64,000 nucleotides of DNA, taken from the NCBI RefSeq assembly GCF_004010195.1, contig NC_057718.1, forward strand, positions 99,381,112 through 99,445,111, in the 5' to 3' direction. The notes under the pieces were generated by a model that worked only from the letters and a program-made list of their open reading frames with translations, searched no databases and was not told the origin of the DNA. This document shows, piece after piece, positions 4,506-63,060 of the stretch. The position numbers were made by a program, and so were the translations under genes. The stretch is from Chiloscyllium plagiosum. Its lineage: Eukaryota. Within the stretch, counting starts at the first letter, position 1, and the number at the start of each line of letters is the position of its first letter.

Positions 4506-4708
4506 GAGAAAGTGAGGTCTGCAGATGCTGGAGATCAAAGTTGAAACTTTATTGCTGGAACAGCACAGCAGGTCAGGCAGCATCCAGGGAACAGGAGATT
4601 CGACGTTTCGGGCACAGGCCGAAGAAGGGCCTGTGCCCGAAACGTCGAATCTCCTGTTCCCTGGATGCTGCCTGACCTGCTGTGCTGTTCCAGCAATAAA
4701 GTTTCAAC
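4506..4708. mobile_element. Young palindromic PLE-terminus insertion (family A) with hammerhead motif at the apex
   Basis: Perfect 82-bp inverted arms 4539-4620 and 4628-4709; 15-bp TSD TAAGTCACCTCTCAG (4491-4505, 4709-4723); arm sequence is homologous to the pLTR downstream of the GIY-YIG frame at 57.3 kb. Confidence 0.9.
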
Positions 4709-4967
4709 TAAGTCACCTCTCAGCCTCCAATGCTCCAAGGAAAATAATCCCAGCCTGTTCAGCCTCTCTGTATAGCTCAAACTTTGACAACATTCTTCTA
4801 AGTCTTTCTGCATCCTTTCCAGTTTAACAACATCCTTCCAATAGCAGAGACCAGAGTGAAAGGTGGTATTCCAAAAGTGGCCGAACCAATGTCCTGTACA
4901 GCCGCAACATCACAACTTCGATACTCAATGCACTGACCAGGAAAGGCAAATGTACCTGACACCTTCA

Positions 4968-5138
4968 TAAAAACCAGAATAACTGCAGATGCTATAAATC
5001 AGAAACAAAAACAGAAATTGCTGGAAAAGCTCAGCATTTGAGTTCTGAGGAAGGATGACTGGACCCGAGACGTTAACTCTGATTTCTCTCCACAGTTGCT
5101 GCTAGACCTGCTGAGCTTTTCCAGCAATTTCTGCTTTT
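4968..5138. mobile_element. PLE-terminus insertion (family B), partly palindromic
   Basis: Inverted CAGAAATTGCTGGAAAAGCTCAGCA / TGCTGAGCTTTTCCAGCAATTTCTG; decayed hammerhead CTGAGGA...GACCCGAGACGTT at 5045-5074; diverged TSD TGTACC...CCTTC. Confidence 0.75.
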
Positions 5139-5899
5139 GTACCGAGCGCCTTCTTCACGACCTTGTGCACTTGTTTTACATCCCCTTGAATCCTGAATCC
5201 ACATTAATGCAGTCAGCTACCTGTTCATTCGAATGACTGTTCTGTCTCTGCTCTCCCCTCACACACTATCATCTGTCTCCCTCTGAACTTGCTCAAGTCT
5301 AAACCTGACTTTGTTATCAAACCTTCTCCAACTCATTCGTAGCTGTGACAAGGAGATGTGAGTTTAGTTTAGAGCAGGAGGGAATCTGTCTTGGCTGCTG
5401 TTCTGTGTTACTGTATTGTGTAACAGTGGGTGGCAATATATGGGGTGTGTCTCAGTAATAGTTTAAAGCCATCCTTAACTCTAATTTAATCCTTGCTGCA
5501 TTGTGAAGCCACAGTGAAACTTTACATTGGACTGATTAAAGTCTATGTGATCAAATCCACTCAAACCAAGCAAGTTTGAAACTTGTTTCAATTTTCGAGA
5601 TTCAGATTTTCAGTTTTCTTTATTGTTTTTGCAGGAGGGGAGATTTGATACTTGCTTAATCACTGCTGAATATGAACATAAAACATTTCAAGGGTGAATT
5701 ATGCTTTAGCTCTGTCCAGCTTTTCATTATGTGCTCTTGCTGCAGGAAGATCATATTTCGAAATGTGTTTGCATTTTTAAAATCAGATTTCATGGCCTAT
5801 ATTAGGGATGCCAGTATTTGAAGTTTCATAATTGAGGCTCAGATAGGTTTTGAGTCAATATCAACATCCTGGGGGTTACCATTGACCAACAGCATATAT

Positions 5900-6216
5900 A
5901 TTAGATCCCCACAGTGTGGAAACAGGCCTTTTGGCCCAACAAGTCCACACCGACCCTCCAAAGAATAACCCACCCAGATCCATTCCACTACCCTATATTT
6001 ACCCCTGACTAATGCACCTAACACTGTGGGCAATTTAGCATGGTCAATTCACCTAACCTGCACATTCTTGGATTGTGGGAGGAAACTGGAGCAAACCCGC
6101 ACAGACACTGGGAGAATGTGTAAACTCCTCACAGACAGTTGCCCAAGGCAGGAATTGAGCCCAGATCCCTGGCACTCTGAGGCAGCAGTGCTAACCACTG
6201 AGCCAACATGCTGCCC
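5900..6216 (-). mobile_element. HE1-type SINE inserted in a LINE RT remnant
   Basis: Same head, body and tail as 1698-2021; flanks translate on + as INILGVTID and HLSTMATRAGQRIG (RT thumb region). Confidence 0.9.
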
Positions 6217-6848
6217 ACTTATATGGGCTGGCCATTTAAGTACAATGGCTACAAGAGCAGGTCAGAGGATAGGCCTGAGGCCTAGACTCTTGGCAGTGTC
6301 AGCAGCAGCAGGGGCGCGGCCTCCTGGGGCATCATTGCTGTTCCTAGAGCAGGACTCCTCAAGGACCAGAATGCATTTCAGAAGCTCTGAAGCCCGTGCT
6401 TGAGACCCCAGTTTGAACAGAAGCTGATCTCTCATTTACCTTGCTTCTTTTTATCCTTGTTGTAACTCAAAATGGAGCCAGATTGTGGTGACAAAACTCT
6501 TCTCACTGTACCTTCAAGATATATGGGGCGATAAATTATTCACTCATTTGAATTGATCAGATTCTACAGTGGCTATTTATCTATCAGAGTACCAGCTGGT
6601 GGTTAAAGGTGAAGATTTCTCTTGGTGTGCCATAATGGAAGCAGAAGGACCTGAGAAACAGAGTGCAGTATTCGTTTGCACTGACTGAAGATGACCCAGC
6701 CCCAGCAAGCCCTTCCTATGAAATGTCCCTGCTCTTGACTAATATAAAGCATTGCGGATCATTGGATTTAAACTGCTCTGACCACCAGGCATCACAAAAC
6801 AATGGGACTGTTGTATTACAATCCCAAAGCTCTTACTTGTGAATTGAC

Positions 6849-7186
6849 TAGAGTCCCTATAGCGTGGAAACAGGCCCTTCAGCCCAACAAGTCCACACTG
6901 ACCCTCCAAAGAATACCTCACCCAAACCCATTCCCCTACCCTATTATTCTACTTTTACCTCTGACTAATTCACTTAACCTACACATCCCTGAACACTATG
7001 GGCAATTTCCCATGGCCAATTCACCTGACCTGCACATCTTTGGATCTGTGGGAGGAAACCGGAGCACCCGGAGGAAACCCACACAGATACGGGGAGAATG
7101 TGCAAACTCCACACAGTCAGTCGCCCGAACACAGGTCCCTGATGCTGTAAGGCAGTAGTGCTAACCACTGAGCCACCGTGCTGCCC
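6849..7186 (-). mobile_element. HE1-type SINE
   Basis: Complete head (GGGCAGCACGGTGGCTCAGTGGTTAGC on minus), body and tail. Confidence 0.9.
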
Positions 7187-7902
7187 AAGTCCTCTGTATT
7201 TGTTTTTTCTTCAAATATCTATTGAACTATAAGTATCATTCAGGAACATGATCTATCCAGCATCTGCTTTGATTCTGATAAAGCTCATAGCATGGAAAAA
7301 GTGTGATCCCTTATTTGGGGTGGAATGATTTTTGAATCAGCATTTGAACAAAAGTCAATCTCAATCTGGGGCTTTTATGTTATTGGTTCGAACTGAATTT
7401 TCTGCTTCCTTAAATTGACAATCATTTAACTTCAGTCATTGGGCTCTTAATTTTGATTAAGTCCTGATATAGTAACTGTCTAGTTAAAATCTTCCAGCTT
7501 TGTGCGAATGTGATGGAAATGTATTGGCTGTAACCTCACCAGTCCATGGGAAGTGTGGTTAGAGTGACGGCTTTTTGTGTGTAGAAGTGTGTGTCAGTTA
7601 TTTTGATAATATAATACTTGTTTCTAACTTTTGTCTGCCATTTTCTTGTGCCATCTCTGTGCTGTCTCAGAAATTAATTACTTTCTTGTGCATTGTATCT
7701 TTAGGTTCAACGGAAGAGAGGTGATTCTTGATGAACTCTTTGAGCTCTGCTTGTACGTGTGTCCAGATAAGTTAATGCAAATACAGAATGTAATGTGGCT
7801 ATGTGGCTGGATCACCTGTAACTAAGCTAATGAGAATGATGCAAGGTCCCCCTGAAACAACCCTCAAAGATTTAAAAGCAGCCCTCCAGATGATCTCAGG
7901 AG

Positions 7903-8187: not shown

Positions 8188-8314
8188 TTTGAAAAGAAAT
8201 GTTGACATCTGTATTGAATTGATCTGGTGAAATAAGTTGCTTTTTTTTATTGTAGTGCAACTTCTGATGGAGTAAAATTGCTGAGACAGTGAATTAGAAA
8301 GAATATATTAGCTA

Positions 8315-8436
8315 CCTGACGAAGGAACGGCACCCCAAAGGCTAGTATTTCCAATTAAACCTGTTGGACTATAACCTGGTGTTGTGTGATTTTTAACTTT
8401 GTACACCCCAGTCCAACACCGGCTCCTCCAAATCAT
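8315..8436 (+). mobile_element. PLE terminus (family C), starting at a decayed hammerhead core
   Basis: CTGACGAAGGAACGGCACCCCAAAGGCTAG followed by AAACCTGTTGGACTATAACCTGGTGTTGTG...CCAGTCCAACACCGG, shared with 12.9, 14.2, 34.5, 46.9 and 47.4 kb. Confidence 0.8.
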
Positions 8437-8990
8437 GTCTTTAGGGAAGGAAATCTGCCATCCTTACCAGGCCTGGCTGACTCCAGACCCACAGAAAGAA
8501 TTTTAATTGTATCAAAAATTGATCTGTTGTTGAGGGAAGCAACGTCCATGATAAAAAATAAAACGTTTAGCCATTGAAATAGGAAGAACTTTTTAAAAAT
8601 TGCTAAGTTGCCTTCCTTGATAAGGTACAGCAGGTCTATTTTTTGAACTTTCTACAGAACACGATAGATTTTACAATTGTTGGGTGTTTGCTTTGGTGTG
8701 TGGCATTATGCGAAAGTGTGTGACAACTCCTAATAATGATTAGGCCTGTCCACTCCAGGCCAGACACATTCTTTTTATCTCTCTCTTTCATTTTCATCTT
8801 TTTTCTTTTTGCCTTCTTTTCCTCATTGTCCTGACGTCATGGGGATGATGGAGAGGAGTCGGTGGTGACCAGAGCTGGGAGTCCTGTGTGTGGTAGGCCC
8901 AGACCGGGGACCTTGCACAGATCTTGAATATGTCCTGTGTGTGATAATATGATTTGGGGGTGTGGTGGAGGCTGTGGAAAAATATCTCTG

Positions 8991-12189: not shown

Positions 12190-12732
12190 TATGAATTTGG
12201 TCCCTTGTTTAAGGAAGCATATTTCATTGGAGGTAGTTCAGATAAGGTTCACTAGAATAATCCCTGGTTTGGAGGGATTGTTTTATGAGCAAAGGTTAAA
12301 CAGGTTAGGACTCTACTCCCTGGAGTTTAGGAGAATGGGAGGTGCTCTCATTGAAACATATCAGATTCGTAAGGGGCTTGACAGAGTCAATGTTGAGAGG
12401 ATGTTTGTCCCTTCATGGGAGAGTCTGGGACCAGAGGATAGAGTCGCAGAATAAATGGGCACCAATTTCAGACTGAGATGAGGAGGAATTCCTTCCCTCA
12501 GAGGGTTGAGAGTCTTTGGAACTCCTTACCACAGAGACAGCTGTGGGGGCAGAGTCCCTGTGTATATTTAAGGCTGAGATAGATAGATTCTTGATCAGTC
12601 GGGAATTCAAAGGTTTTGTGGGAAGGACAGGAAAGTGGAGGTGAGGAATGTCGGATCAGCCACGATCCTATTGAATGTCAGAGCAGGGCGGAAGGGCCGA
12701 ATGGCTTACACTAAATGGCTCTCTCTTATGAA
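12190..12732 (+). mobile_element. CR1 LINE 3' fragment
   Basis: LEVVQIRFTRIIPGLEGLFYEQRLNRLGLYSLEFRRM motif followed by the 3' UTR. Confidence 0.9.
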
Positions 12733-12881
12733 CTATGGTCTTAGAGGTCAACAAAAAATCCTGGCCCAGCCATCGACACACACTTCCCAAAAAAAAACCA
12801 AGTAAAATGTCTATCTTGTGTTTGTTTTTGCACTGTCAAGTTGCACAGGTGGATACATCAATAGGTTTACCCCCTTTGTCT

Positions 12882-13156
12882 GTGATGTGGAGATGCCGGT
12901 GTTGGACTGGGGTGGACAAGGTCAGAGGTCACACAACATCAGGTTATAATCCAACAGGTTTATTTGTCAGGTCTAGTGAGAGGGAAGCACGCTGGCGCAG
13001 AATTTATGGGCAGAGAGATCACACGCAGAGCGATCAAAAGATCATACAAATGGTTTTGTGTTCCGCGCACTTCCCTCTCACCACACTCCAAAAGCTTGTA
13101 ATTTCAAATAAACCTGTTGGACTATAACCCGGTGTCGTGTGACTTTCGTCCACCTT
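12882..13156. mobile_element. Palindromic PLE-terminus insertion (family C)
   Basis: Inverted arms CAGGTTATAATCCAACAGGTTTATTTG / CAAATAAACCTGTTGGACTATAACCCG. Confidence 0.75.
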
Positions 13157-14140: not shown

Positions 14141-14559
14141 TGTGATTTGGAGATGCCGGTGTTGGACTGGTGTGTACAAAGTTAAAAATCACACAACACC
14201 AGGTTATAGTCCAACAGGTTTAATTGGAAGCACACTAGCTTTCGGAGCGCCGTTCCTTCATCAGGTGATAGTGGAGGATACAATTGTAAGGCACAGAATT
14301 TATAGCAAAAGTTTACAGTGTGATGTAACTGAAATTGCACATTGAAAAATACCTTGATTGTCTGTTGAGTCTTTCATCTGTTCGAATACCATGATAGTTT
14401 CAACAATATGTTGTCAACATATTGTCTCGCTAACACCAATTGTTACAGTTAACCTGAGAATGCAACTTTTAAAAAAAAAGTTTTGTCATTTACACATGAA
14501 AGAAGTGAAACTATCATGGTGAAGGAGCGGCGGCCCGAAAGCTAGTGTGCTTCCAATTA
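14141..14559. mobile_element. PLE family C 3' end with inverted segments
   Basis: Long arm on minus with an intact hammerhead core; short + arm GAAGGAGCGGCGGCCCGAAAGCTAGTGTGCTTCCAATTA; flanked by ATTCAGAG direct repeats. Confidence 0.8.
14234..14267 (-). ncRNA. Minimal hammerhead ribozyme motif (PLE family C)
   Basis: Minus strand CAC-CUGAUGA-A-GGAAC-GGC-GCUCC-GAAA-G-CUA-GUG: core boxes intact, helix I CAC/GUG, helix II with one mismatch. Confidence 0.7.
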
Positions 14560-18682: not shown

Positions 18683-19380
18683 TTATAGAGTCAAAGAGAT
18701 GTACAGCATGGAAACAGACCCTTCGGTCCAATCCGTCCATGCTGACCAGATATCCCAACCTAATCTCGTCCCACCTGCCAGCACCCGGCCCATATCCCTC
18801 CAAACCCTTCTTATTCATATACCCATCCAAATGCCTCTTAAATGTTGCAATTGTACCAGCCTCCACCACATCCTCTGGCAGCTCATTCCATACACGTNNN
18901 NNNNNNNNNNNNNNNNNNNNNNNNNNNNNNNNNNNNNNNNNNNNNNNNNTCTGAACCCTTTCAAGTTTCACAACATCTTTCCGATAGGAAGGAGACCAGA
19001 ATTGCATGCAATATTCCAACAGTGGCCTAACCAATGTCCTGTACATTGCATGCAATATTCCAACAGTGGCCTAACATGACCTCTCAACTCCTGTACTCAA
19101 TACTCTGACCAATAAAGGAAAGCATACCAAATGCCTACTTCACTATCCTATCTACCTGTGACTCCACTTTCAAGGAGCTATGAACCTGCACTCCAAGGTC
19201 TCTTTGTTCAGCAACACTCCCTAGGACCTTACATTAAGTGTATAAGTCCTGCTAAGATTTGCTTTCCCAAAATGCCGCACCTTGCATTTATCTGAATTAA
19301 AGTCCATTTGCCACTTCTCAGCCCATTGGCTCATCTGGTCCAGATCCTGTTGTAATCTGAGGTAACCCTCTTCACTGTCC
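18683..19380 (-). mobile_element. CR1 LINE 3' fragment spanning an assembly gap
   Basis: [43 protein letters not shown] and RVWNELPEDVVEAG motifs. Confidence 0.92.
18898..18949. other. Assembly gap (52 N)
   Basis: Run of N. Confidence 1.
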
Positions 19381-19551: not shown

Positions 19552-19730
19552 GACAGACAGGAAGCTGGAAGAACACAGAGTAGATAGAGTGTGGTGCACA
19601 GCAGGTCAGGCAGCATCCGAGGAGTAGGTGAGTTGATATTTCAGGCAGGACCCTTCATCTGGAAGAACACAGCACACCAGGTGGCTGTGGAGAAGTCAAC
19701 GTTTCGGATGTAACCCTTCTTCAGGACTGG
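19552..19730 (-). mobile_element. PLE terminus (family D) with a family A fragment nested inside (19579-19658)
   Basis: 14-bp direct repeat CTGGAAGAACACAG flanks the inner fragment; hammerhead in the outer element at 19698-19724. Confidence 0.7.
19694..19728 (-). ncRNA. Minimal hammerhead ribozyme motif (PLE family D)
   Basis: Minus strand AGUC-CUGAAGA-A-GGGU-UAC-AUCC-GAAA-C-GUU-GACU: intact core, helix I AGUC/GACU. Confidence 0.7.
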
Positions 19731-19941: not shown

Positions 19942-20915
19942 AGATCAAAGAATCTTACAGCACAGGAACAGGCCCTTTGACCCTCCAAGCCTACACCAAT
20001 CCAGATCCTCTGTCTAAACCTGTCACCTATTTTCTAAGGGCCTGTATCCCTCTGCTCCCTGCCCATTCATGTATCTGTCTAGACACATCTTAAATGTCAC
20101 TATTGTGCTCTTCTCTACCACCTCCACTGGCAACTTGTTCCAGGCATCCATGACCCTTTGCATAAAGAACTTTCCATGCATATATCCCCTAAACTTTTCC
20201 CCTCTCACCTTGAACTCATGACCTCGAGTAATTGCGTCCCCCTCTCTGGGAAAAAGCTTCTTGCTATCCACCCTGTCTATACCTCTCATGATTTTGTAGA
20301 CCTCAATCAGGTCCCCCCTCAACCTCCATCTTTCTAATGAGAATAATCCTAATCTGCTCAACCTGTCCTTATAGCTAGCACCCTCCATACCAGACAACAT
20401 CCTGATGATCCTCCTCTGCACCCTCTCCTAAGCATCCACATCCTTTTGGTGATGTGGTGATCAGAACTGTACGCAGTATTCCAAATGTGGCCAAACCAAA
20501 GTCCTATACAACTGTAACATTACCTGCCAACTCTTGTACTCAATACCCCGCCTGATGAAGGGAAGCATGCCATATGCCTTCTTGACCACTCTATCGACCT
20601 GCGTTACCACCTTTAGGGTACAATAGACGTGAATATTCAGAACTCTCTGTACATCAATACTCCCCAGGGCTTTTCCATTTACCGTATAGTTCACTCTTGA
20701 ATTGGATCTTCCAAAATGCATCACCTTGCATTTGCCGGGGTTGAACTCCATCTGCCATTTCTCTGCCCAACTCTCCAATCTATCTATATTCTGCTGCACT
20801 ATCTGACAGTCCCCTTCACTACCTGCTACTCCACCAATCTTAGTGTCATCTGCAAACTGGCTAATCAGACCACCTATACCTTCCTCCAGATCATTTATGT
20901 ATATCACAAACAAAG
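19942..20915 (-). mobile_element. CR1 LINE 5'-truncated copy (RT from the FADD motif to the 3' UTR)
   Basis: LFVIYINDLEEGIGGLISQFADDTKIGG...WAEKWQMEFNPGKCKVMHFG...YRTLVWPHLEYCVQF; stop-disrupted. Confidence 0.95.
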
Positions 20916-21571
20916 ACAGCGATTGGAAATTCCCCTGTATGGCTGAGTTTAATGTTCTCCCCAAATGCAAATGCTGGAAAGTGGGGTTAGAAGAGTGAGC
21001 TGGTTGTTCCTGACAGGCACAGACCAGCTGGGCTGAAGGGCCTTGTCTCTGCTGTAGACCTCCGTGACTGTATGGCGCATGAGCGCCTGAATCCTGGGAG
21101 TGGCCTGCTTTGACACGATGGTCAGGTTGGAAAGGGAGTTCCCAAAATAAAACCAGCGATGCCATTGTCTCTGGCCGCTATTCTCAGAGTTCCTGAGGTG
21201 AAATCTTTAGGACTCACCCTTTCCCAATCATCTGCTGAGGAATTGCAAATGGCAGGGGAGCTACATTTTAAAAGCTGAAAAATTGGGAGCATAGTAAGCC
21301 ATTCAGTCCATCAAGCCTGCCCCATTATTCAGAAAGGACATGACTGAGCTAGTGCGGCCTTTTCTTTCCTGTCTGTCCCCGGAGACTCTCAACTCCTATC
21401 TCCTAGGAGCTGGACATCAGACTGCTCACACTTTATAATCCAATGGAGGGGCGGAAGGTTCATAGTCCTAGAGTGCTAGAGTCATACAGCACGGACACAG
21501 ACTCTTGGGTCCAACCAGTCCATGCCAAACATAGTCCCAAACTCAGCTAGTCTCCCCTGCCTGCTCCTGCC

Positions 21572-22531: not shown

Positions 22532-22763
22532 TTGAGAGTGTGTTGCTGGAAAAGCACAGCAGGTCAGGCAGCATCTGAGGAGCAAGAGAATCGACATTTT
22601 GGGCCGGAGCCCTTCATCAGAAACGTCGATTCTCCTGCTCCTCCAGTAGGAGAGGGTAGGACCCAAGGCACAGCCTTGGAGGAAAGGACCAACCCTGCTG
22701 TGCTTTTCCAGCACCGGACTCTCAACTCTGATCTCCAGCATTTGCAGACCTCACTTCCTCCTT
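22532..22763. mobile_element. Palindromic PLE-terminus insertion (family A) with a captured CR1 patch
   Basis: Inverted GCTGGAAAAGCACAGCAGG / CCTGCTGTGCTTTTCCAGC; antisense CTGATGA core at 22614-22620; tail CTCCAGCATTTGCAGACCTCACTTCCTCC. Confidence 0.85.
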
Positions 22764-23254
22764 AATTGTCTGTACGCTGAATCAAGAGTAATGATTGAAA
22801 AGCTAGCAAGCAAATAATTAAATACTAATCAAATGAATATAAGTTGATCTTTCTTGATGGATGAAATCCTGTGGTCTTCCCCCCAGATTAAGTAGGACAG
22901 TTGTCTGGCTGAAATGCCATGTCCAGCTTCTCAGGAGTGGGAGTTAAACCCACACTTTGTTGACACAGTAGTAGGAGTGCTACCTACTGAGCTATAGTTG
23001 ACACTGGTTCATGCAAGCTTAAGTAGACCTGAAGTAGCTTAATTGCATAACACCTTTACACATCCCATACTATGTCAACAGTGCAAAGTTTCTATTTATT
23101 CAGCAAATCTAGGGTTGTTTTTATCTATCAACCCATTATTAGGCCCTTCAGCCTTGATTGACACATTACTCCAGACTGAAAGAGGTGTGCTTTATGCAGT
23201 GTATTTGTCTGGTAAATATTTAAATGCTTGAGCAGTGATATATAGGGGTGGAGT

Positions 23255-24031: not shown

Positions 24032-24169
24032 ATTCTGAGTTAGAGTGGCGCTGGAAAAGCACAGCAGTTCAGGCAGCATCCGAGGAGCAGGACCTGACCT
24101 GCTGTGCTTTTCCAGCACCACGCTAATCCAGAATCTGGTTTCCAGCATCTGCAGCCATTGTTTTTACCT
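24032..24169. mobile_element. Palindromic PLE-terminus insertion (family A variant), apex deleted
   Basis: Inverted arms; the right arm matches 57350-57380 and continues with a ~35-nt tail. Confidence 0.8.
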
Positions 24170-25486
24170 AACTCTTCTTTTCCCAAGAATCAATTTCAAC
24201 TGTACTTCACATTGCCATGGGGCTGGCACGGCCAAGTGGAGGTACTCAGTTCCCTTGACCTCTGCTGGAAACCGTATTACCTCATTTTCATTTCCAACTG
24301 TGGAGTAACGTAGGCCACAGGGAGAATCTCATGCTCAAAGGCTGACACTCAGAATCTCAGTACCTGGCAACTTTCGAGAATTCCTTGCCCCTGGCACAAG
24401 CCGCAGTTACACAACATTTGTCCATGTCCATGGCACGCACTCAAGGGAACACAGCTAAATAATTTAGCTAATGACCAAAGGTACCATCTTACTGCGAGGA
24501 CGCTGCACAGGAAGATGTTGACGGAAGCCGGGAGATAACGGTGGAAGATGATCGAGCTGAGAAGGTCGATGTAGTTTTGTAACAGCCTTGGGAACATCCC
24601 TGATTTTAATTGCTCCAACTTTGGCAACAGTGTTTTCCATTAATAAGGCTCTGGAATTTCCTTCACAGTCATCTCTGTCCCTCTGCCTCTGTCTGTGCCC
24701 ACACTACACTCCTTAAAACCAACTCTTTGACCAGGAACACCTGTCCTAACATTCAGCATGTGGCTCAGTGACAAATTTTGTCCGATAATTGCTCCTGTGA
24801 ATTTGTCTTACTCCATTAAGGGGACTATATAAATGTGCGTTGTTGTTTTCTTTGGCCAGCCTGGTTATGATGACTAACTGATAAAACAAAACAAATTGTT
24901 ACGCAACAAGTACTAGCAGAGAAATCTGTGTTCCATTACACCCAGAGGAAACACATTTGAAATATGTTTTATAAGTTCCTCACTGTGCAGTAATCATAAG
25001 TTTTCATCGTCTCCTTATAACTCTTCACTCTCCAAAGGCACTTAATTGAACAGTAGCCAGAGGAAATGACTCCTAAGGTGGAACTTGATGCACACCTTGT
25101 TGTATAGGTAGAATCTTATAGGGATCTGAGCAACATGAGCTATGATGAGATTTGTGGAAGAGTTGGACAAGAAATCTTCAGAGACCCATCTTGATGTTGG
25201 GAGTGTCTCCATACATCTTTTATGTTTTTCATTGCAGTTTGGCAAGTTTCTCACTAGGCAGTGGTGTGTTGCCAGTGAAGGGAGAGTGTAGCTTGTTAAA
25301 CGCCTTGTTGATGACCCAACTTGCATCATGTATATTTGTTTTGTTTAAGCAAATACACCAAACAAATTAGACATTGGGAAAATGTGATGTGGAAGTCAAA
25401 ATGGGTCGCTGGTGCATTCAGTTTGTCACTTGCTCCAATGGACCCTGTGCTGAGCACTGGGCAGCAGCATCTCAGGGCACTGGCCA

Positions 25487-27678: not shown

Positions 27679-27886
27679 TTGTTGTAGTTCTGTTCACCGA
27701 GCTGGGAATTTCTGTTGCAGACGTTTCATCCCCTGTCTAGGTGACATCCTCAGTGCTTGGGAGCCTCCTGTGAAGCGCTTCTGTGTTGTTTCCTTCTGGC
27801 ATTTATAGTGGTTTGTCTCTGCCACTTCCGGTTGTCAGTTCCAGCTGCCCGCTGCAGTGGCCGGTAAATCTTCTCACAAACTTTGA
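27679..27886 (-). mobile_element. PLE terminus (family E) inserted in an HE1 SINE
   Basis: 10-bp TSD ATTCTCCCCG (27669-27678, 27887-27896); contains a hammerhead motif. Confidence 0.75.
27717..27756 (-). ncRNA. Minimal hammerhead ribozyme motif (PLE family E)
   Basis: Minus strand GCA-CUGAGGA-U-GUCACCU-AGAC-AGGGGAU-GAAA-C-GUC-UGC: intact core, canonical GUC triplet, helix I GCA/UGC. Confidence 0.72.
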
Positions 27887-34437: not shown

Positions 34438-34855
34438 GTTAGGTCAGAAGTCACATGACACCGGGTTATAGTCCAACAGGTTTATCAAAAATCATGAGCT
34501 TTTGGAGTGCTGCTCCTTCATCAGATGACGTTTCACTTCACTTGATGAAGGAGCAGTGTTCCAAAAGCCCATGATTTCAAATAAACCTGTTGAACTATAA
34601 CCTGGTGTCGTGTGTCATAGAGTCATAGAGATGTACAGCATGGAAACAGACCCTTCAGTCCAAACTGTCCATGTCGACCAGATATCCGACCCAATCTAGT
34701 CCCACCTGCCAGCACCCGGCCCATATCTCTCCAAACCCTTCCTATTCATATACCCATCCAAATGCCTTTTAAATGGTGCAATTGTACCAGCCTCCACCAC
34801 TTCCTCTGTCTTCTGACCTTGCCCACCCCAGTCCAATACCGGTACCTCCACATCA
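34438..34855. mobile_element. Palindromic PLE family C insertion, later hit by a CR1 3' tail (34615-34808, minus)
   Basis: Inverted arms around TCCTTCATCAG...TGATGAAGGA; the right arm resumes at 34809; flanked by CACCATT repeats. Confidence 0.8.
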
Positions 34856-38971: not shown

Positions 38972-39007
38972 TTCTGAGGAAGGGTCTCGGACTCGAAACG
39001 TTAACTC
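38972..39007 (+). ncRNA. Minimal hammerhead ribozyme motif (PLE family B)
   Basis: UU-CUGAGGA-A-GGGUC-UCG-GACUC-GAAA-C-GUU-AACUC; helix II fully paired (one G-U); helix I reads GAGUU/AACUC in the 5040 copy. Confidence 0.72.
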
Positions 39008-39105: not shown

Positions 39106-39380
39106 GAAACCACTTCTGCTGAGGTGACTGGGTTCTCCTGGACTATCGCGATTCTCTTGATATGAGAGAACTGTACCAGCTCTCAGCTCTTCAGAACTGA
39201 CCTTTATACCCTCTGTTTTTGAAGGCAAAACTTAACTAATCGCCTTAATGTGATTACTCTGCCTGTCATAAACCCAACAGTGTACATATTTCATCAATTA
39301 ACACCGATATGGTCTGCTAAGTGGTTATTTGAAGTCCTAGACTTTCTTAGAAATGATGCATTAATGTCACTATCCAAATG

Positions 39381-39672
39381 ATTAGATTCGATTCCCTACA
39401 ACGTGGAAACAGGCCCTTTGGCCCAACAAGTCCACACCGACCCTCCGAAGAGTAACCCACCCAGACCCATTTTCCTACATTTACCCCTGACTAATGCACC
39501 TAGCTCTATGGGCAATTTCCCATGGCCAATACACCTGACCTGCACATTTTGGACTGTGGGAGGAAACCGGAGCACCCAGAGAATGAGCAAACTCCACACA
39601 GACAGTCGCCGAATTGAACCTGGGACCCTGGTGCTGTGAGGCAGCAGTGCTAATCTCTGAGCCACTGTGCCA
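39381..39672 (-). mobile_element. HE1-type SINE
   Basis: Head, body and tail homology. Confidence 0.9.
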
Positions 39673-40849: not shown

Positions 40850-41855
40850 AAAACACGTACCTACAAATTCAAGAACAGCTTCTTCCCTGCTGTTAAGACC
40901 ATAAGACATAGGAGTGGAAGTAAGGCCATTCAGCCCATCGCGTCCACTCCGCCATTCAATCATGGCTGATGCTGAAAATGTGTTGCTGGAAAAGCGCAGC
41001 AGGTCAGGCAGCATCCAGGGAACAGGAGAATCGACATTTCGGGCATAAGCCCTTCTTCAGGAATCGTCCCTGAAATGTCGATTGTCCTGTTCCCTGGATG
41101 CTGCCTGACCTGCTGCGCTTTTCCAGCAACACATTTTCAGCTCTGATCTCCAGCATCTGCAGACCTCACTTTCTCCTCAATCATGGCTGATGGGCATTTC
41201 AACCCCACTTACCAGCATTCTCCCCGTAGCCCTTAATTCCTTGTGACATCAAGAATTTATCAATCTCGGCCTTGAAGCCATTTAGCGTCCCAGCCTCCAC
41301 TGCACTCCGCGGCAATGAATTCCACAGGCCCACCACTCTCTGGCTGAAGAAATGTCTCCTCATTTCTGTTCTGAATTTACCCCTTCTAATTCTAAGGCTG
41401 TGCCTATGGGTCCTAGTCTCTTCGCCTAATGGAAATAATTTCCTAGCGTCCACCCTTTCCAAGTTATCAGACTTTTGAATGAATTTCTCATAAATTGGAG
41501 TTGATCTTTCTCTGCACCTTCTTTGTAGCTGTGTTACTCTATTCTGCATTCTGTTTTATTACCTGCACGTACTTATGTAAGGGATGATTTGCCTGGACAG
41601 CACACAAAGCAATACGTTTTATTGTAAAAAAACAAAGAAAAAAATCCACAGATGCTGGAAATCAGAAACAAAAACAGAAATTGCTGGAAAAACTCGGCAG
41701 GTCTGGCAGCATCTCTGAAGAGAAATCAGAGTTATCGTTGAAACGTTAACACTGATTTCTCTCCACAGATGCGGAGCTTTTCCAGCAATTTCTGTTTTTG
41801 GTACTTTTCACTGTATCTCAGTACATGTGACAATAATCAAATCAAATCAAATCAG
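40850..41855 (+). mobile_element. Rex/Babar-type 3' fragment interrupted by a CR1 3' end (40896-41462, minus) and by a PLE family B palindrome (41626-41800)
   Basis: KFKNSFFPAV at ~40866 resumes as IRLLN at ~41466; tail GTACATGTGACAATAA(TCAAA)n. Confidence 0.75.
40971..41176. mobile_element. Palindromic PLE family A insertion in CR1
   Basis: 16-bp TSD TCAATCATGGCTGATG; inverted arms; ~35-nt unpaired tail; antisense hammerhead CUGAAGA-A-GGGC-UUAU-GCCC-GAAAU-GUC at 41033-41060. Confidence 0.9.
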
Positions 41856-42504
41856 CCTTTCATATGCCTGGGTACAAGTGGACCATGTTTGAAGAGCTTA
41901 TGCTTGAACCGTCGATTCTCCTGCTCCTCGGATGCTGCCTAACTGTCTGTGCTTTTCCAGCACTGTACTATTTGACACAGACTAATAGCTGGCTTAAAGG
42001 AACTCACTCCTTTTTGATAGTGGAGAGCAGTAGAATAGGTAACTCTTAATAACCTCCGTCAGCTTCAAATAGAATTGACAGCTGTACTGAGCTCCAAATG
42101 ACAGCAGTGTCAGACTCACAGCAGTTCACTGCGGGTCAGTAATCGTTGTTTTACTGCCTGGGTTTACGGCTGGAGAATTTCACTCACACCTGCTGAGGGA
42201 TCAGATACACCGAGCGTAAAATCCCAGTGTGTCCCTGACAAACAGCAAGTGCTTTTACTGCACGGCAATCTGATTGTGAAACCTTGCTTTTCCTGGCATC
42301 GAGCCACTCAAATGGGTTTCACATCAAACTGAGTCGAGTTGTGGTTTTAATTGCAATGTGTCACTTTTAAGCTGCTTGAACATTGTGTGAAAATATGGGT
42401 TTGCAGTCCTTCCCTTTCCTGACTGGATGTTTGCCTTGTCCTGTTTTACGATCCTATTCCCAGGCCTTTGCCCACTTGATGGTCATGCTTCCAATCGCGG
42501 AAGC

Positions 42505-46164: not shown

Positions 46165-47090
46165 CATGTAGTGGCGGTGTTGGAGCGGGCAGCATCCATG
46201 CTCTTGAGCCTGAGGCTCCTCCATTCTATCCGTTTTCTTTCATTCTTCCTCTCTCTTTCTTTTGTTATCCGTGCTTCTTAACTTACCTTCTGGAGCGAGC
46301 TTGATTGAGGAGGTAGCGTGACAATGGCTGGGGACCAGCCTGAACACAGATGGGAATGGGGGTGGTCAGCGGCAATGCGGCTGGTGAGGTTGGCATGACT
46401 TCACCCAGTGAGGGGGTTGGGAGAGTGCCCTTGTGGGGAAAGCCCAGTTTGGATGATTGCATGCCCACCATGGCTTGGTGGTTAGCGCTAGGGATCTGGG
46501 TCCGATTCCAGCCTCAGACGACTGTCAGCACCTTCTCCCCGTGTCTGTGTGGGGTTCCCCCCGGGTGCTCCGATTTCCTCCCACAGTCCAAAGATGTGCA
46601 GGTTAGAGTGAATTGGCCATGAGAAGTGCAGTGTACAATGATAGGGGTCTGGATCCTGGTGGGATGGCCTTTAGAGGGTGAGAGCGGACTCGATGGGCCA
46701 AATGGCTTGCTTCCACACTTTAGGGATTCCATGAAAGGACTGCAATGTTTAACTTCTAACATAATTTTTCTACATTATGCTAAAGTCCTTTTAATTTATT
46801 TCATTATTTTTCCATTTTTGTATCTCAGATTTTGTACCTCTGTACCAGTGTAAGTAAGTAAGATGGCATTGGGAATGGTAGCCATGATGTGGAGGTGCCC
46901 TCCTGACAAAGGAGCAGTGCTCCGAAAGCTAGTGCTTCCAAATAAACCTGTTGGACTGTAACCTGGTGTTGTGTGATTTTTAACATTGGGAATGGTGACT
47001 TTGTATTCTTGTCTCTGTACCCCTGTACCCCTGTATGTGTACTTGAGTGCACATGTCTATAAACCTAAATCTAAATCTAAATCTAAATGT
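46165..47090 (+). mobile_element. Non-autonomous element related to 10432-11910, interrupted by HE1 (46472-46733) and a PLE family C insert (46883-46983)
   Basis: Shared TTTGTACCT...TAAGATGG 3' block and (CTAAAT)n tail; the PLE insert has a 13-bp TSD CATTGGGAATGGT. Confidence 0.55.
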
Positions 47091-47352
47091 AATCAAACAT
47101 TTCCCAAGCTGGCACAGTTCATCCCAGGCCTGTGTGTAAACTAGAGAGGCTCAGTGTGCAGGGTCCAGTCAAAATCTAAACGGAGACTAACTCACTAAGT
47201 GCAGTATTGAGATATAAAATAGCAGCTTTGGCATTGATCCTAAACCTTTGGATAACAAGTGAAACCGATCTGTGCAAGCTCCCATCGTACAATCTGCAGA
47301 TGAAAACAGTGAAACAACACAGATTGGGCAAAAGAAATGTGAAATGTCACTG

Positions 47353-47522
47353 AACACCAGGTTATAGTCCAACAGGTTTATTTGAAATCACAAGCTTTTG
47401 GAGCGCTGCCCCTTTGTCGGTCTTCACCTGCTTGTGATTTCAAATAGACCTGTTGGACTAGAACCTGGTGTTGTGTGAGTTCTGACCTTGTCCACCCCAG
47501 TCCAACACCGGCACCTCCACAT
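47353..47522. mobile_element. Palindromic PLE family C insertion
   Basis: Inverted arms AACACCAGGTTATAGTCCAACAGG / CCTGTTGGACTAGAACCTGGTGTT plus tail. Confidence 0.8.
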
Positions 47523-47685: not shown

Positions 47686-48630
47686 TGAATTGAATTGAAT
47701 TGAATTTATTGTCACGTGTCACAGTGAAAAGCTTTGTCTTTCGAGCAATACAGGCAGATCACAGAGTTAAGTAGCATAGGTAAGTGAATAAGAGTAACAG
47801 CGGCAAAAACAAAAACACAGGTACAGGCGAATGTTAAGAGTTTATAAGTCCATTCAGTATTCTAACAACAGGAGGGTAGAAACTGTTATGAAACCGGCTG
47901 GTGCGTGTGTTCAGGCTTCTGTACCTTCTCCCCGATGGTAGAGGTTGTAGAAAAACATTATCAGGGTGGGATGGATCTTTGAGAATGCTGGCAGCCTTTC
48001 CTTGACAGCGGGCCTGGTAGATGGATTCTACAGATGGGAGGTTGGCTTTTGTGATTGTCCGGGCCGAGTTCACCACTCTCTGTAACCGTCTCCGATCTTG
48101 AATGGTACAGTTGCCATACCAGGTAGTGATACATCCAGATAGAATGCTCTCGATGGCGCACCTATAAAAGTTGGCAAGGGTATTCACCGTCATGCCAAAT
48201 CTCCTCAGCTGCCTGAGGAAGAAGAAGCGTTGTTGGGCCTTTGTAACCAGTGCGTCCACATGAAGAGTCCAAGAAAGCTTACTGTGAATGACCACTCCCA
48301 GGAGCTTGACACTCTCCACTTGTTCCACCTCAGTGCTGTTAATGTGTCCAGGGGCATGAGTAACGTCCCGCTGAAAGTCAATAATGAGTTCCTTGGTTTT
48401 GCTGGCATTGAGAGCTAGGTTGTTCTCAGTGCACCATGTTTCAGGTCTTCCATCTCCCATCTGTAGTCTGTTTCGTGGCCATCTGAGATTCGACCAACAA
48501 TGGTGGAGTCATTAGCGAACTTGTAAATGGTATTAGTCTGGTATTTGGCAACGCAGTCATGGGTATACAGTGAGTACAGTAGGGGGCTGAGTACGCACCC
48601 CAGGAAAGCTCCAGTGTTGAGTGTTAGTGA
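47686..48630 (-). mobile_element. Rex1/Babar-clade LINE, 5'-truncated (RT C-terminal half), nested in an older relative (47555-47685 and 48660-48890)
   Basis: LSPLLYSLYTHDC, IYKFANDSTIVG, WCTENNLALNASKTKELIIDF, FYRCAIESILSGCITTWYGNC, LPSGRRYRSL; (ATTCA)n tail. Confidence 0.9.
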
Positions 48631-50099: not shown

Positions 50100-50860
50100 A
50101 AACATAGAATATAGAACATTACAGCACAGGAATGAGCCCTTCGGCCCAAAATGCTGTGCCGAATGTGATGCCAAATTAAACTAATCCCTGCTACCTCTCC
50201 TTGACCTGTACCCCTCCATTCCTTGCATGTCCATGTGCTTATTTAAAGCTGCGTAGACCCCCCTATCGTGTCTGTCTCCACCTCCACCCCTTGGCAGTGC
50301 ATTCCACCCCTCTTACCACTCTCTGTGTAACAAAATCCACCCTCGCCTTTAAACTTTGCCCCTCTCACCTTAAATGCATGCCTCCTAGTTTTAGATATTT
50401 CAACTTTGGGAAAAAGATTCTGACCATCAACCCTATCTATGCATCTCATGTTTTTATAGACTTCTATCAAGTCTCCCCTCAGCCTCTGCCGCTTCAGTGA
50501 AAACAAGCCGAGTTTTTCTAGCCTTCCCTGTAGCTCATACCCTCTAATCCAGGCAGCATCCTGATAAACCTCTTCTGCACCCTCTCCCAAGCCTCCACAC
50601 CCTTCCTGTAATGTGACGATCAGAATTGAATGCAATACTCTAAGTACAGGCTAACCAAAGTCTTATAAAGCTGCAGCATGACACCCTGACTCTTGTCTAG
50701 ATTAGAGTGGTGCTGGAAAAGCACAGCAGGTCAGGCAACATCCGAGGAGCAGGAGAATCGACGTTTCGGGCAAAAGCCCTTCTCTTCACCACCCTATCTA
50801 CTTGTGCGCCAACTTTCAGGGAGCTATGGGCTTGAAACCCAAGATCCCTGGCTACATTAA
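50100..50860 (-). mobile_element. CR1 LINE 3' fragment with a PLE family A half-arm at 50695-50781
   Basis: RLEKLGLFSLKRQRLRGDLIEVYK motif. Confidence 0.88.
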
Positions 50861-51601: not shown

Positions 51602-52010
51602 ACAGAATCCATACAATGTGGAAGCAGGCTACTCGACACATAAGCTCCGCTCCACACCAACACTCCAAAGAGCATTGCACCCAGACCAAACCCCTTACCC
51701 TATCTCTGCATTTCCCATGGCTAACCCACATATCCCAGGACACTATGGGGCAAATTAGCATGGCCAATTCACCTGACCTGCACAGCTTTGGCCTGTGGAA
51801 GGAAACCGGAGCACCCGGAGGAAACCCAGACAATGTGCAAACTCCACACAGACGGTTGCCCATCGAAGGGCTCATGCCCGAAATGTCGATTCTCCTGCTC
51901 CTTGGATGCTGCCTGATCTGCTGCGCTTTTCCAGCAACACATTTTCAGCTCTGGATTCGAACCCTGGTCCTGTGAGGCAGTAGTGCTAACCATTGAGCCA
52001 CTGTGCCACC
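51602..52010 (-). mobile_element. HE1-type SINE containing a PLE family A arm (51865-51951, +)
   Basis: SINE body interrupted by GAAGGGCTCATGCCCGAAATGTCGATTCTCC...CATTTTCAGCTCT. Confidence 0.88.
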
Positions 52011-56356: not shown

Positions 56357-56558
56357 GGAGAAAGTGAGGTCTGCAGATGCTGGAGATCAAAGTTGAAACT
56401 TTATTGCTGGAACAGCACAGCAGGTCAGGCAGCATCCAGGGAACAGGAGATTCGACGTTTCGGGCACAGGCCCTTGAAGAAGGGCCTGTGCCCGAAACGT
56501 CGAATCTCCTGTTCCCTGGATGCTGCCTGACCTGCTGTGCTGTTCCAGCAATAAAGTT
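56357..56558. mobile_element. Young palindromic PLE family A insertion
   Basis: 13-bp TSD GCAACTTTTTCAC (56344-56356, 56559-56571); identical to 4505-4708 except at the apex and the end. Confidence 0.92.
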
Positions 56559-56688
56559 GCAACTTTTTCACACAGAGGGTGGTGCGTGTGTGGAATGAGC
56601 TGCCAGAGGAAGTGGTGGAGGCTGGTACAATTACAACATTTAAAAGGCATCTGGATGGGTATCCACATCCATCAAAGTTTCACCTGCC

Positions 56689-57120
56689 CACACCTCCTCC
56701 CTCACCTCCATCCAAGGCCCCAAAGGAGCTTTCCACATCCATCAAAGTTTTACCTGCACATCCACTAATATCATTTATTGTATCCGTTGCTCCCGATGCG
56801 GTCTCCTCTACATTGGGGAGACTGGGCGCCTCCTAGCAGAGCACTTTAGGGAACATCTCCGGGATACCCGCACCAACCAACCACACCGCCCCGTGGCCCA
56901 ACATTTCAACTCCCCCTCCCACTCTGCCGAGGACATGGAGGTCCTGGGCCTCCTTCACCGCCGCTCCCTCACCACCCAACGCCTGGAGGAAGAACGCCAC
57001 ATCTTCCCCCTCGGAACACTTCAACCCCAGGGCATCAATGTGGACTTCAACAGTTTCCTCATTTCCCCTCCACCCACCTTACCCCAGTTCCAACCTGCCA
57101 GCTCAGCACTGTCCCCATGA
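56689..57120 (+). pseudogene. PLE GIY-YIG endonuclease domain, 5'-truncated (no start codon, no RT)
   Basis: My translation, in frame with track ORF 56893-57120; IIY...YIGETGR...R.H motif with an intervening CxxC. Confidence 0.88.
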
Positions 57121-57284: not shown

Positions 57285-57320
57285 ATTCCTGATGAAGGGC
57301 TTTTGCCCGAAACATCGATT
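57285..57320 (+). ncRNA. Minimal hammerhead ribozyme motif (PLE family A), one CpG-type decay
   Basis: AUUC-CUGAUGA-A-GGGC-UUUU-GCCC-GAAA-C-AUC-GAUU (GUC in sister copies). Confidence 0.7.
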
Positions 57321-60427: not shown

Positions 60428-60720
60428 ATTAGAGATTAGATTAGATTCACTACAGTGTGGAAACAGGCCCTTCGGCCCAACCAGTCCACACTGACCGTCC
60501 GAAGAGTAACCCAACCAGACCCATCTCCCTCTGAGGAGAAGGTGAGGACTGCAGATGCTGGAGATGGGCTCATGCCCGAAACGTCGATTCTCCTGCTCCT
60601 TGGATGCTGCCTGACCTGCTGTGCTTTTCCAGCGACACATTTTCGGCTCATCTCCCTCTGACTAATGCACCTAACATTATGGGCAATTTAACCTGGCCAA
60701 TTCACCTGACCTGCACATCT
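60428..60720 (-). mobile_element. HE1 3' half containing a minimal PLE family A insert (60535-60648)
   Basis: 13-bp TSD CATCTCCCTCTGA; the insert is an antisense tail only, followed by a sense pLTR that starts at helix II. Confidence 0.88.
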
Positions 60721-60811: not shown

Positions 60812-60944
60812 CCATTCCTGATGAAGGGCCTTTGCCTGAAACGTCGACTCTCCTGCTTCTCGGATGCTGCCTGACCTGCTGTGCTTTTCCAGCACCACTC
60901 TAATCTTGACTCTAAGCTCCAGCATCTGCAGTACCCACCTCTGC
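60812..60944 (+). mobile_element. PLE family A terminus with an intact hammerhead core (60818-60845)
   Basis: AUUC-CUGAUGA-A-GGGC-CUUU-GCCU-GAAA-C-GUC followed by pLTR and tail. Confidence 0.85.
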
Positions 60945-61015
60945 CAAGAGGATGAGGCCATAAATCCATCCCTTTCACCAAGGTGGGCTACGGCAAGGAT
61001 CCGTCATACAGTGAG

Positions 61016-61515
61016 NNNNNNNNNNNNNNNNNNNNNNNNNNNNNNNNNNNNNNNNNNNNNNNNNNNNNNNNNNNNNNNNNNNNNNNNNNNNNNNNNNNNN
61101 NNNNNNNNNNNNNNNNNNNNNNNNNNNNNNNNNNNNNNNNNNNNNNNNNNNNNNNNNNNNNNNNNNNNNNNNNNNNNNNNNNNNNNNNNNNNNNNNNNNN
61201 NNNNNNNNNNNNNNNNNNNNNNNNNNNNNNNNNNNNNNNNNNNNNNNNNNNNNNNNNNNNNNNNNNNNNNNNNNNNNNNNNNNNNNNNNNNNNNNNNNNN
61301 NNNNNNNNNNNNNNNNNNNNNNNNNNNNNNNNNNNNNNNNNNNNNNNNNNNNNNNNNNNNNNNNNNNNNNNNNNNNNNNNNNNNNNNNNNNNNNNNNNNN
61401 NNNNNNNNNNNNNNNNNNNNNNNNNNNNNNNNNNNNNNNNNNNNNNNNNNNNNNNNNNNNNNNNNNNNNNNNNNNNNNNNNNNNNNNNNNNNNNNNNNNN
61501 NNNNNNNNNNNNNNN
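61016..61515. other. Assembly gap (500 N)
   Basis: Run of N. Confidence 1.
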
Positions 61516-61844
61516 TTTGAGAAGGTTGACAGTCCAATGCAGCACATGCCAGCTCTTACTGTGTCGGTGTTTGGAGGAGTGGGTACTGGGATTGTCCCAC
61601 ACTTTCAGCACTCCCTCTGACCCCCTCAATGCCACCCCTGATCATTCCCATCAAAGTCTCTCCTTGTGTTTGGTACCTGCCTGAATGAACCTTCTCCACT
61701 CTGGTCAGATACAAAGCAGAGACCCCCCCATGTCTTATGGGAATGACTGACCCTATCAGGGACACTTTGAATCTTTTCTAAAGCATTCCCATTGTCCTGT
61801 TGGGAGTGTCCTGGGACCTGGTTCCAAGCAGGATAAAGATTCCA

Positions 61845-61976
61845 GCTCTGAGAAAGAGTCATCTAGACTGAAAACCTTGCTTGCTCACTCTCTCTCTGTA
61901 GATGCTGCCTGACATGGTGTGATCTCCAGCATTTGTTGTTTTCAGTACAGATTCCAGCCTCTGCAGTGACTTGCTC
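61845..61976 (+). mobile_element. Decayed PLE terminus (family F)
   Basis: CTGAGAAAGAGTCATCTAGACTGAAAAC (decayed core, helix AGTC/GACT), then GATGCTGCCTGAC...TTCCAGCCTCTGCAG. Confidence 0.5.
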
Positions 61977-62159
61977 TTAAGTGTTCCATCGGCTGTCTGG
62001 TGTCAGCGATGTTCACTGGGAATCTTACCATCCTCTCTAGTGTATCTGGTGTGCACTTACAAAGAGGTACTCACGTAGCCACATTTACCCACACGGGCTT
62101 GTGTACACACGCCCCACAATATACCCGTGGAACGGTCAAAATGTTAAGGCTATTTTTTA

Positions 62160-63060
62160 AGATTAAATTAATGGGGTCGACTATGACATGGAGACTACTT
62201 TTGAGGGGCAGAAATTCACGTAAATGAATTACGGTAATTCCACACGTGCTATAGGGGAACGCAGCTCACTGAGCTGTACATAATGGGGGGGTTAGGTGAA
62301 AGTGAGGACTGCAGATGCTGGAAATCAGAGTGCAGATTAGAGAAGGGCTGGAAAAGCACAGCAGGTCAGGCATCCAAGGAGCAGGAAAATCAACATTTCG
62401 GGCAAAAGCCCTTCATCAGGAAAGGCTTCATCAGGATGAAGGGCTTTTGCCCGAAACATCGATTTTCCTGCTCCTGGGATGCTGCTTGACCTGCTGTGCT
62501 TTTCCACAATGGGAGATTGTCACCACACTCTGATATGGGATGCATCTGCAATTTTCACGCCAAATTCTTTCATTTCCCACTATTTTCTCTTGTCCACTGT
62601 TGTTTTAGCTTCTCAAACTACCACTTTAACCTTTCATTTCTGATAAAAATGTTATCAGACATTTGACTCTCATACAGTCTCACCAATCATTGTAACCATG
62701 AGAAATCGTCACCAGCTGCATGGTAATTATTGTGAGCTAAATGCACGTAGGCCTGTCTTATTTAGAAAATGATGGTGTGATAAACTTTGTATCACACTAA
62801 TTACACTAATTATAGCGCTCATGCGATAATGATCTTAAGAAATCTGTAATCCACGTTGGTGTGGACTCGACATCAAAACACATAATAGCACGGGAAAGAA
62901 AATTCATTTCCTCATCGTAACATAATACCTTGACTCAGAAATCTCAATCTGTCATCTGTGAAGAACTAGGATTGACTTTTACATGAGATATACGGAAAAT
63001 TCCAGATCTTTTGGTCAAAAATAGGGTGTCGACTTTTATGTGGGATTGATTTTCACTTGA
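62160..63060. mobile_element. Possible DNA-transposon remnant (pogo/Tc2-like subterminal repeats)
   Basis: Recurrent GGGTCGACT...ACATG-like motifs at ~62174, ~62968 and ~63024; no complete TIR pair seen. Confidence 0.3.
62294..62506. mobile_element. Palindromic PLE family A insertion
   Basis: Arms meet at GCCCTTCATCAGG...GATGAAGGGC; antisense core at 62413-62419. Confidence 0.85.

Follow-up and report, generated by a model that had tools for sequence, protein, structure and literature searches.

Minimal hammerhead motifs in the genome of the shark Chiloscyllium plagiosum probably belong to truncated ends of five Penelope-like element families

The window analysed here, a stretch of 64,000 nucleotides of the Chiloscyllium plagiosum genome (contig NC_057718.1, positions 99,381,112 to 99,445,111), contains many short repeats that carry the motif of a minimal hammerhead ribozyme (min-HHR). 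The original prediction, made from the letters alone, assigned these repeats to at least five families (A–E) derived from Penelope-like elements (PLEs), whose pseudo-long terminal repeats (pLTRs) carry such motifs. A plain scan of the window finds the core boxes at every place that it named. The full set of 11 core bases survives at eight of the 11 named sites; the other three are broken: 5045+ (GAGA), 46903+ (CUGACAA), and 8316+ (CAAAG). The eight intact window copies have the core boxes (CUGANGA, GAAA, UH) in type I order. Minus-strand sites had been named by their low ends; the core nucleotide C3 lies at 41060, 62419, 14264, 19724, and 27753. Two family A triplets had been misread as GUC. 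They are AUC (57289+) and GUU (62419−) because of CpG decay, and the palindrome at 57289+ has decayed to ACAU.

Real reference copies from the genome align to the window in 45 pieces, 26 of which reach the hammerhead region. The predicted figure of about 20 termini therefore holds, yet most are decayed or truncated, with the intact core (all 11 bases) kept in eight of the 26. An Rfam scan of the window at gathering thresholds returned no match. A structure-aware scan (perfect core, helix II of at least 3 bp, helix I of at least 2 bp) returned nine matches, compared with none in each of eight dinucleotide shuffles. The match at 9760− has no relative within the window and probably arose by chance. 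The features of the window are listed in Table 1.

The Penelope-like origin is borne out for all five families: in each, an open reading frame (ORF) encoding a GIY-YIG endonuclease lies upstream of the hammerhead somewhere in the genome. The GIY-YIG fragment of the window stops about 170 nt upstream of 57289+, and the corresponding family A ORF has 147,333 first-look candidates genome-wide. At three loci (L012, L013, and L023), PLE-type reverse transcriptase (RT) motifs and GIY-YIG are followed by a family A hammerhead. Same-strand ORF matches lie upstream at 5 of 10 loci for A, 1 of 30 for B, 2 of 30 for C, 12 of 30 for D, and 6 of 30 for E, counts in which two A loci overlap and a few matches stem from an adjacent element of a different family; such matches lie downstream at 1 of 130 loci. 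Family-specific GIY-YIG sequences could be read for B, C, D, and E. Family A encodes RT and GIY-YIG, D and E retain pieces of both, and B and C retain GIY-YIG pieces only, with Pfam scores under the curated cut-offs. The ORFs of the families are ~25–50% identical to one another. Among named sequences, the family A protein is nearest to those of Chiloscyllium punctatum (79%), Rhincodon, and Stegostoma, which points to a carpet shark as the likely host. An RVT_1 match in L013 belongs to an unrelated piece of the long interspersed element (LINE) type fused upstream and was not used; frames of 800–1,300 amino acids in the genome-wide ORF search are due to assembly gaps.

A CX2-5CxxC linker between RT and endonuclease, a marker of Neptune PLEs (PMC8557442), is present in A (L013), C (L223), and D (L181 and L189). 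It was not seen in family B, whose ORF sequence comes from one locus only, or in the translation from RT thumb to GIY-YIG at one family E locus (L158). Judged by the linker, A, C, and D would be Neptune-like, and E, because it lacks the linker, would be Poseidon-like; B offers too little sequence to place. In published Neptune PLEs, RT is likewise followed by a C-terminal GIY-YIG with this linker, and partial tandems, an adjacent inverted truncated copy, and an optional tail are also common to both (PMC8557442).

The families had been described as otherwise different repeats whose helices co-vary. The first statement fails for A, B, and D, which have a homologous 3′ tail in common and, on this sequence evidence, are related lineages. 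The second is confirmed between families. On columns anchored on the core boxes only (a MAFFT alignment had shifted family C by one column), 76 of 80 cells (10 subfamilies × 8 pairs) are paired. Of the 120 ways of exchanging 3′ strands between the five families, the real one scores best, without a tie, for each of the 18 representative sets. Each of the first three helix I pairs occurs as three Watson–Crick pair types, and contiguous helix I is only 2–4 bp long. The helix I proposed for family A (AUUC/GAAU) is perfect in the CUGU-loop subfamily only; in two of three subfamilies it reads AUUC/GAUU, with a U·U mismatch. Helix III is collapsed to a palindrome (ACGU or AGCU) at the family level, as proposed. 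The 15.2–16.2 pair is C–G in 7 of 10 subfamilies and G–C in 2; the family D majority has C–A, from CpG decay, and ACGU copies of D also exist. The extra base between positions 9 and 10.1 is A or U in all 10 subfamilies, and the 10.1–11.1 pair is G–C in nine and G–U in one. This covariation reflects selection on the master elements. The inserted copies do not show selection on the short solitary copies (stubs): the core is kept in 59 of 83 family A and 20 of 34 family C copies, CpG sites decaying fastest.

The very large genome-wide pool that had been foreseen does exist. The pattern CTGANGA-N10-24-GAAA-NN-TH occurs 391,729 times in the 3.56-Gb genome, compared with 30,289 occurrences of the reversed control; the difference of 361,440 intact cores amounts to one per 9.8 kb. 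Tight family patterns have 15,996 (A, one subfamily), 388 (B), 18,505 (C), 544 (D), and 20,752 (E) occurrences, with 0 for each control. A sample of 100 stretches of 10 kb, picked by position only (972,391 bases), contains 133 strict cores compared with 10 reversed; 81 of the 133 have a palindromic 15.2–16.2 pair. When helix II of at least 4 bp, helix I of at least 3 bp, and a Watson–Crick 15.2–16.2 pair are required, a filter that drops most of family A with its native U·U mismatch, 27 cores remain in the sample (972 kb), corresponding to an estimated ~99,000 genome-wide. Copies bearing the tail number 317 in the sample and ~1.2 million by extrapolation, and family C stubs ~200,000, also by extrapolation.

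The 3′ ends of stubs fall into two classes 30–40 nt apart, in A, B, C, and E in the sample and also in D, the sample medians being 89/125 (A), 92/121 (B), 83/121 (C), and 75/110 (E). The tail of every family can form a 7–8-bp long-range helix at about +43 to +112 from C3. The short 3′ end falls within the loop of this helix and the long end ~10–20 nt beyond it. In family E the loop is AC-rich and one pair is compensatory (G–C in 10 and A–U in 7 of 18), a single event; in A/B/D, none of the seven pairs shows a compensatory change. At the other end, 139 of 290 5′ ends of tail-selected A, B, and C copies lie at −12 to +10 around the core (6.0 per nt), compared with 0.29 per nt at −40 to −13. A TATA-like box lies further upstream: 15 of 19 long family C copies have TATAWA between −36 and −40, and 2 of 4 family B copies have it at −31/−33, 32 of 34 family A copies have YTTATM at −35/−37, and some family D copies have a similar box. 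Such a box, 31–40 nt upstream, would start transcription where the A, B, and C stubs begin. A TATA box in a rotifer pLTR has already been published.

A complete family A insertion (L291, G000:C46:722500-732400) is flanked by a 10-bp target-site duplication and includes an inverted short pLTR arm and a partial upstream tandem copy. Its two hammerheads, at 5338 and 8818, are on the same strand and 3,480 nt apart, in the order 5′ hammerhead, tail continuing into the 5′ region, RT, GIY-YIG, and second hammerhead. Since the same hammerhead-plus-tail module lies at both ends, the module ends one copy and starts the next, a layout as drawn for PLEs in PMC3846280 and PMC8557442. The full tandem was sought for family A only; inverted pairs are present in A, B, C, and E. 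The long tail end of L291 coincides with a pyrimidine tract and may be a splice acceptor.

RNA reads come from one run (X19), a single-cell poly(A) library from one sample, possibly of a related species, of which ~2% was read; they were mapped to one family A and one family C copy. No pile of read ends is found at the cut site of either copy in this run. Reads over the family A tail come about equally from both strands, and those over the family C hammerhead are ~8 to 1 element-sense. In family C, 900 of 3,390 reads have poly-T loose ends, at two sites (405 and 495 reads) that lie 12 and 15 nt beyond ATTAAA and before a GU-rich tract, where the element sequence is not A-rich. Poly(A) is thus added 28–31 nt after the cut site, so that cleavage at this site would separate the RNA from its poly(A) tail. 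The polyadenylated reads derive from family members of at least 85% likeness, so they represent the family and not the copy at 14204..14224 in particular, and they fit element transcripts and host read-through alike. AWTAAA is present at +38/+40 in 34 of 44 anchored family C copies, and literature searches on poly(A) signals in pLTRs returned nothing specific. Separately, a candidate signal, AATAAA, occurs at +75/+76 in a single subfamily of A (13 of 77 anchored A copies). Over the GIY-YIG region of family A at 56730-57120, reads are ~3–4 to 1 antisense to the element, assuming the strand convention of the family C poly(A) reads. At 57317, 64 reads fuse a pyrimidine-rich, AG-ending sequence to the base that immediately follows the cut site of family A; we rejected these loose ends as free cut ends, the flank being uniform and apparently from a single locus.

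We consider it likely that the stubs are truncated ends of five endonuclease-bearing PLE families, that the hammerhead cleaves only as a protein-assisted pair in the element RNA, and that the stubs themselves are inert as ribozymes. The TATA-like box would start transcription at the front edge of helix I. The element RNA would then begin with one hammerhead and end soon after a second one, and the two could form a double hammerhead through the ACGU/AGCU palindrome. Reverse transcriptase would start inside or just after the tail helix and, when priming on the 5′ copy of the module, would run off the RNA 5′ end after 90–130 nt to leave a stub. Because the stubs retain the hammerhead, the template was mostly uncut, and run-off complementary DNAs (cDNAs) of this kind may account for hundreds of thousands of stubs. 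The family C module in addition holds the poly(A) site that, in the one RNA run, is used after its cut site. The RT of Anolis Poseidon starts internally at two tail sites, gives a product that shortens with a 5′-truncated template, and works on uncut RNA, and the hammerhead of that element needs protein (PMC11167929). Roughly a million dated insertion ends from five families are enough to read the PLE replication cycle from its products: the RT start, the beginning of the template, and its mostly uncut state can be taken from the stub ends. The role of the hammerhead in PLEs is still open (PMC7761336, PMC8557442).

Several observations weigh against this account. The box of A and D is non-canonical, and the start is placed by motif spacing and stub ends. 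In family E, TATAWA lies at −50/−53 (14 of 23 copies) and short copies end at −14 to −1 (4 ends), which misfits a start near −21. The promoter of Drosophila Penelope is internal and TATA-less (PMC2377424). The ORF of L291 is broken, and no intact element was found. In inserted copies the core is slightly less variable than the tail (3.6% compared with 5.6% in A; 6.8% compared with 15.3% in C), a comparison confounded by subfamily differences and by the alignment-based selection of copies. Any 5′ cleavage products, and 3′ products of very small size, would be missing from a poly(A)-selected library. Finally, 5′ ends are mildly enriched near the cut site: by a rough normalisation, ~2,070 per nt at +27/28 genome-wide, where three flanking windows have ~1,030, 1,610, and 1,480. 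The sample has 2.7 per nt at +27 to +36. Therefore, some templates may have been cut. The genome-wide search found no spike at the cut site but just this 1.3- to 2-fold excess, which fold-back joins at helix I explain in part.

The original prediction went further, suggesting that the relics might cut host pre-mRNA by pairing with one another. In this reading, the palindromic helix III would join two intact same-strand stubs of one pre-mRNA, or stubs of separate RNAs, and host transcripts would be cut. In its favour, the genome holds ~361,000 excess intact cores (~99,000 helix-filtered), the stubs are transcribed, and min-HHR dimers of schistosomes cleave weakly in vitro (PMC4209133). Of 195 core-spanning copies, 87 have a same-strand neighbour within 3 kb. 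However, random placement predicts 78, and within 500 nt there are 17 compared with 18.6 expected; moreover, 150 of the 317 copies form head-to-head inverted pairs, which place the motifs on opposite strands. In all nine window copies folded, the dimer is less stable (−0.5 to −9.0 kcal/mol) than two monomers (−9.8 to −23.6 kcal/mol) by nearest-neighbour energies, with a 4-bp palindrome and with the non-canonical pairs of the core outside the model. The missing read-end pile and the reads from both strands of the family A tail argue in the same direction. The Anolis element likewise shows no ends in RNA sequencing at the site and no cleavage unless protein is present (PMC11167929), and published min-HHR monomers are inactive, with weak dimers (PMC4209133). 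Mutual pairing is thus not supported, and we regard host cutting by stubs as unlikely. If the stubs do affect host transcripts, the poly(A) site of family C is a more plausible means than cleavage by the ribozyme.

The very high copy number and fairly uniform size (90–130 nt) of the stubs might instead suggest a non-autonomous family, resembling a short interspersed element (SINE) or a retrozyme, that amplifies itself via short or circular hammerhead-cleaved RNAs. Tandem retrozymes derived from pLTRs are reported in vertebrates, including one chondrichthyan (bioRxiv 10.64898/2026.07.22.740005), and their type I hammerheads come from PLE pLTRs, as here. Those non-LTR retrozymes form head-to-tail tandem arrays, whereas the stubs are dispersed, solo or head-to-head, and close same-strand neighbours (the 17 of 195 within 500 nt) are not enriched over the chance figure. 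In addition, the stubs mostly begin ahead of the core and not at the cut site, lack an upstream TATA-like box, and correspond in sequence to the termini of copies from their own subfamilies that carry an ORF. Self-amplification of this kind is therefore very unlikely, and the truncated-end origin is retained.

A further alternative is that the motif no longer cleaves in vivo and is retained because reverse transcription uses it as a signal for protein binding or folding. Hammerhead mutants left the in vitro insertion of Anolis Poseidon unaffected (PMC11167929), Naiads proliferate well without a hammerhead (PMC8557442), and two of three family A subfamilies carry the U·U mismatch in helix I. 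Set against this, the 11 catalytic bases, an H17 that is never G, and the dimer palindrome are kept despite the divergence of the ORFs (~25–50% identity), and such cross-family conservation of core, H17, and palindrome would be expected under selection for catalysis. In addition, the motif of Anolis cleaves with protein, and a C3G/G8C exchange rescues it (PMC11167929). We consider this alternative very unlikely.

The motif is the known minimal hammerhead of PLE pLTRs described in 2014, here in a new host group and at a very large scale. Like the published min-HHRs, it is of type I, keeps only a palindrome of helix III, and has G10.1–C11.1 and an additional base following A9; several consensus families per genome differ by compensatory changes; and most motifs are solo, from truncated elements, with some opposite-strand pairs (PMC4209133). 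The host lineage differs: two of the three supplementary files of PMC4209133 contain no shark, Callorhinchus, or Leucoraja. Literature searches on shark hammerheads returned no specific paper, although the remaining supplements of PMC4209133 and of bioRxiv 10.64898/2026.07.22.740005 may list motifs of cartilaginous fish. Published counts, obtained with a helix-requiring descriptor, are ~4,000 for coelacanth and ~9,000 for Xenopus (PMC4209133); our ~361,000 pattern-based and ~99,000 helix-filtered cores far exceed the per-genome numbers found in the literature searched, but the descriptors differ.

Poseidon PAc of Anolis carolinensis, as presented in PMC11167929, has a pLTR hammerhead, two tail ends 30–40 nt apart, and a tail stem-loop, all of which recur here; a tail stem-loop with an AC-rich loop is found here in family E, and RNA ends at the cut site are seen in neither system. 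Only family E appears Poseidon-like in our set, A, C, and D carrying the Neptune linker. The ORF of PAc begins inside the hammerhead (PMC11167929), whereas the family A frames in L291 begin beyond the tail or close to its end. New here are the TATA-like box, the pile of 5′ ends, the two-hammerhead element, the conserved tail helix, and, in one RNA run, family C polyadenylation. As a tentative and rather doubtful extension, the pLTR might be organised like a retroviral U3-R-U5 (TATA box, short terminally repeated hammerhead region, which in family C includes a poly(A) site, and RT-start helix), with stubs resembling strong-stop cDNAs; family C stubs might then act as a mobile ribozyme-plus-terminator cassette that ends intronic host transcripts, with protein-gated cleavage, 30 nt upstream of the poly(A) site, as its off switch.

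Table 1 Hammerhead-bearing repeats and associated features of the window.
Feature	Position	Strand	Remarks
Family A PLE ORF 3′ end (GIY-YIG endonuclease fragment, 5′-truncated copy)	56644..57120	+	Pfam GIY-YIG E=0.0023, under curated cut-off
Family A minimal hammerhead in pLTR of ORF-bearing copy, core intact, AUC	57289..57316	+	copy end 57381 = short tail end (+92)
Family A hammerhead, core intact, GUC	60818..60845	+	stub 60814-60932
Family A hammerhead, core intact	41033..41060	−	left arm (40971-41064), head-to-head with 41069-41180(+)
Family A hammerhead, core intact, GUU	62392..62419	−	arm 62300-62422, head-to-head with 62435-62506(+)
Family A head-to-head pair (4505-4620 minus, 4621-4709 plus)	4505..4709	.	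both cores truncated
Family A head-to-head pair	56357..56566	.	both cores truncated
Family A arms 22537-22623(−), core broken, and 22694-22765(+)	22537..22765	.	
Family A tail pair, head-to-head	24032..24170	.	both arms begin downstream of hammerhead
Family A stub, core lost	41890..41976	+	similar stubs: 50695-50782(−), 51865-51953(+), 60558-60655(+), 38575-38619(−)
Family B hammerhead, core intact, GUU	38974..39002	+	stub 38969-39103
Family B pair	4967..5137	.	hammerhead 5045+ with broken GAAA box
Family B tail pair, head-to-head, without core	41649..41798	.	
Family C hammerhead, core intact, CUA, helix II weakened	14236..14264	−	copy 14143-14401; inverted partner 14440-14559(+)
Predicted promoter TATAAA in family C pLTR	14299..14304	−	40 nt upstream of C3
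Family C poly(A) signal ATTAAA (14224-14219)	14204..14224	−	addition sites matching 14207, 14204; then GU-rich tract
Family C stub, core broken	8314..8437	+	
Family C stub, core broken at G8	46899..46988	+	
Family C head-to-head pair, both cores broken	34448..34614	.	
Family C head-to-head pair, cores truncated	47336..47522	.	
Family C tail arms 12883-12966(−) and 13086-13146(+), without core	12883..13146	.	
Family D hammerhead, core intact, GUU	19698..19724	−	then same-strand broken family A-like copy 19596-19664
Family E (Poseidon-like) hammerhead, core intact, GUC	27720..27753	−	copy 27677-27869; 23-nt inverted tail piece 27866-27888

The window also holds other repeats. LINE-type fragments lie at 20464-21177(−), 33686-33985(−), 44150-44893(+), 47837-48508(−), and 63275-63853(−), with RVT_1, ALKBH8_N, and weak zf-RVT matches. 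A repeat of 280–360 bp, probably a SINE, has ~20 copies (for example, 1700-2032, 5897-6225, 6831-7188, 25910-26259, and 39379-39672), and the family E copy at 27677-27888 appears to be inserted within one of them. Assembly gaps lie at 18898-18949 and 61016-61515; the N run makes spurious long ORFs appear at 60840-61684. A weak THAP domain match at 12732-13124 (+) scores under the cut-off (E=0.0064). Just 3′ of the window (L040:1774-3661), a degenerate CA/TG-rich repeat of ~1.9 kb is open in all six frames.

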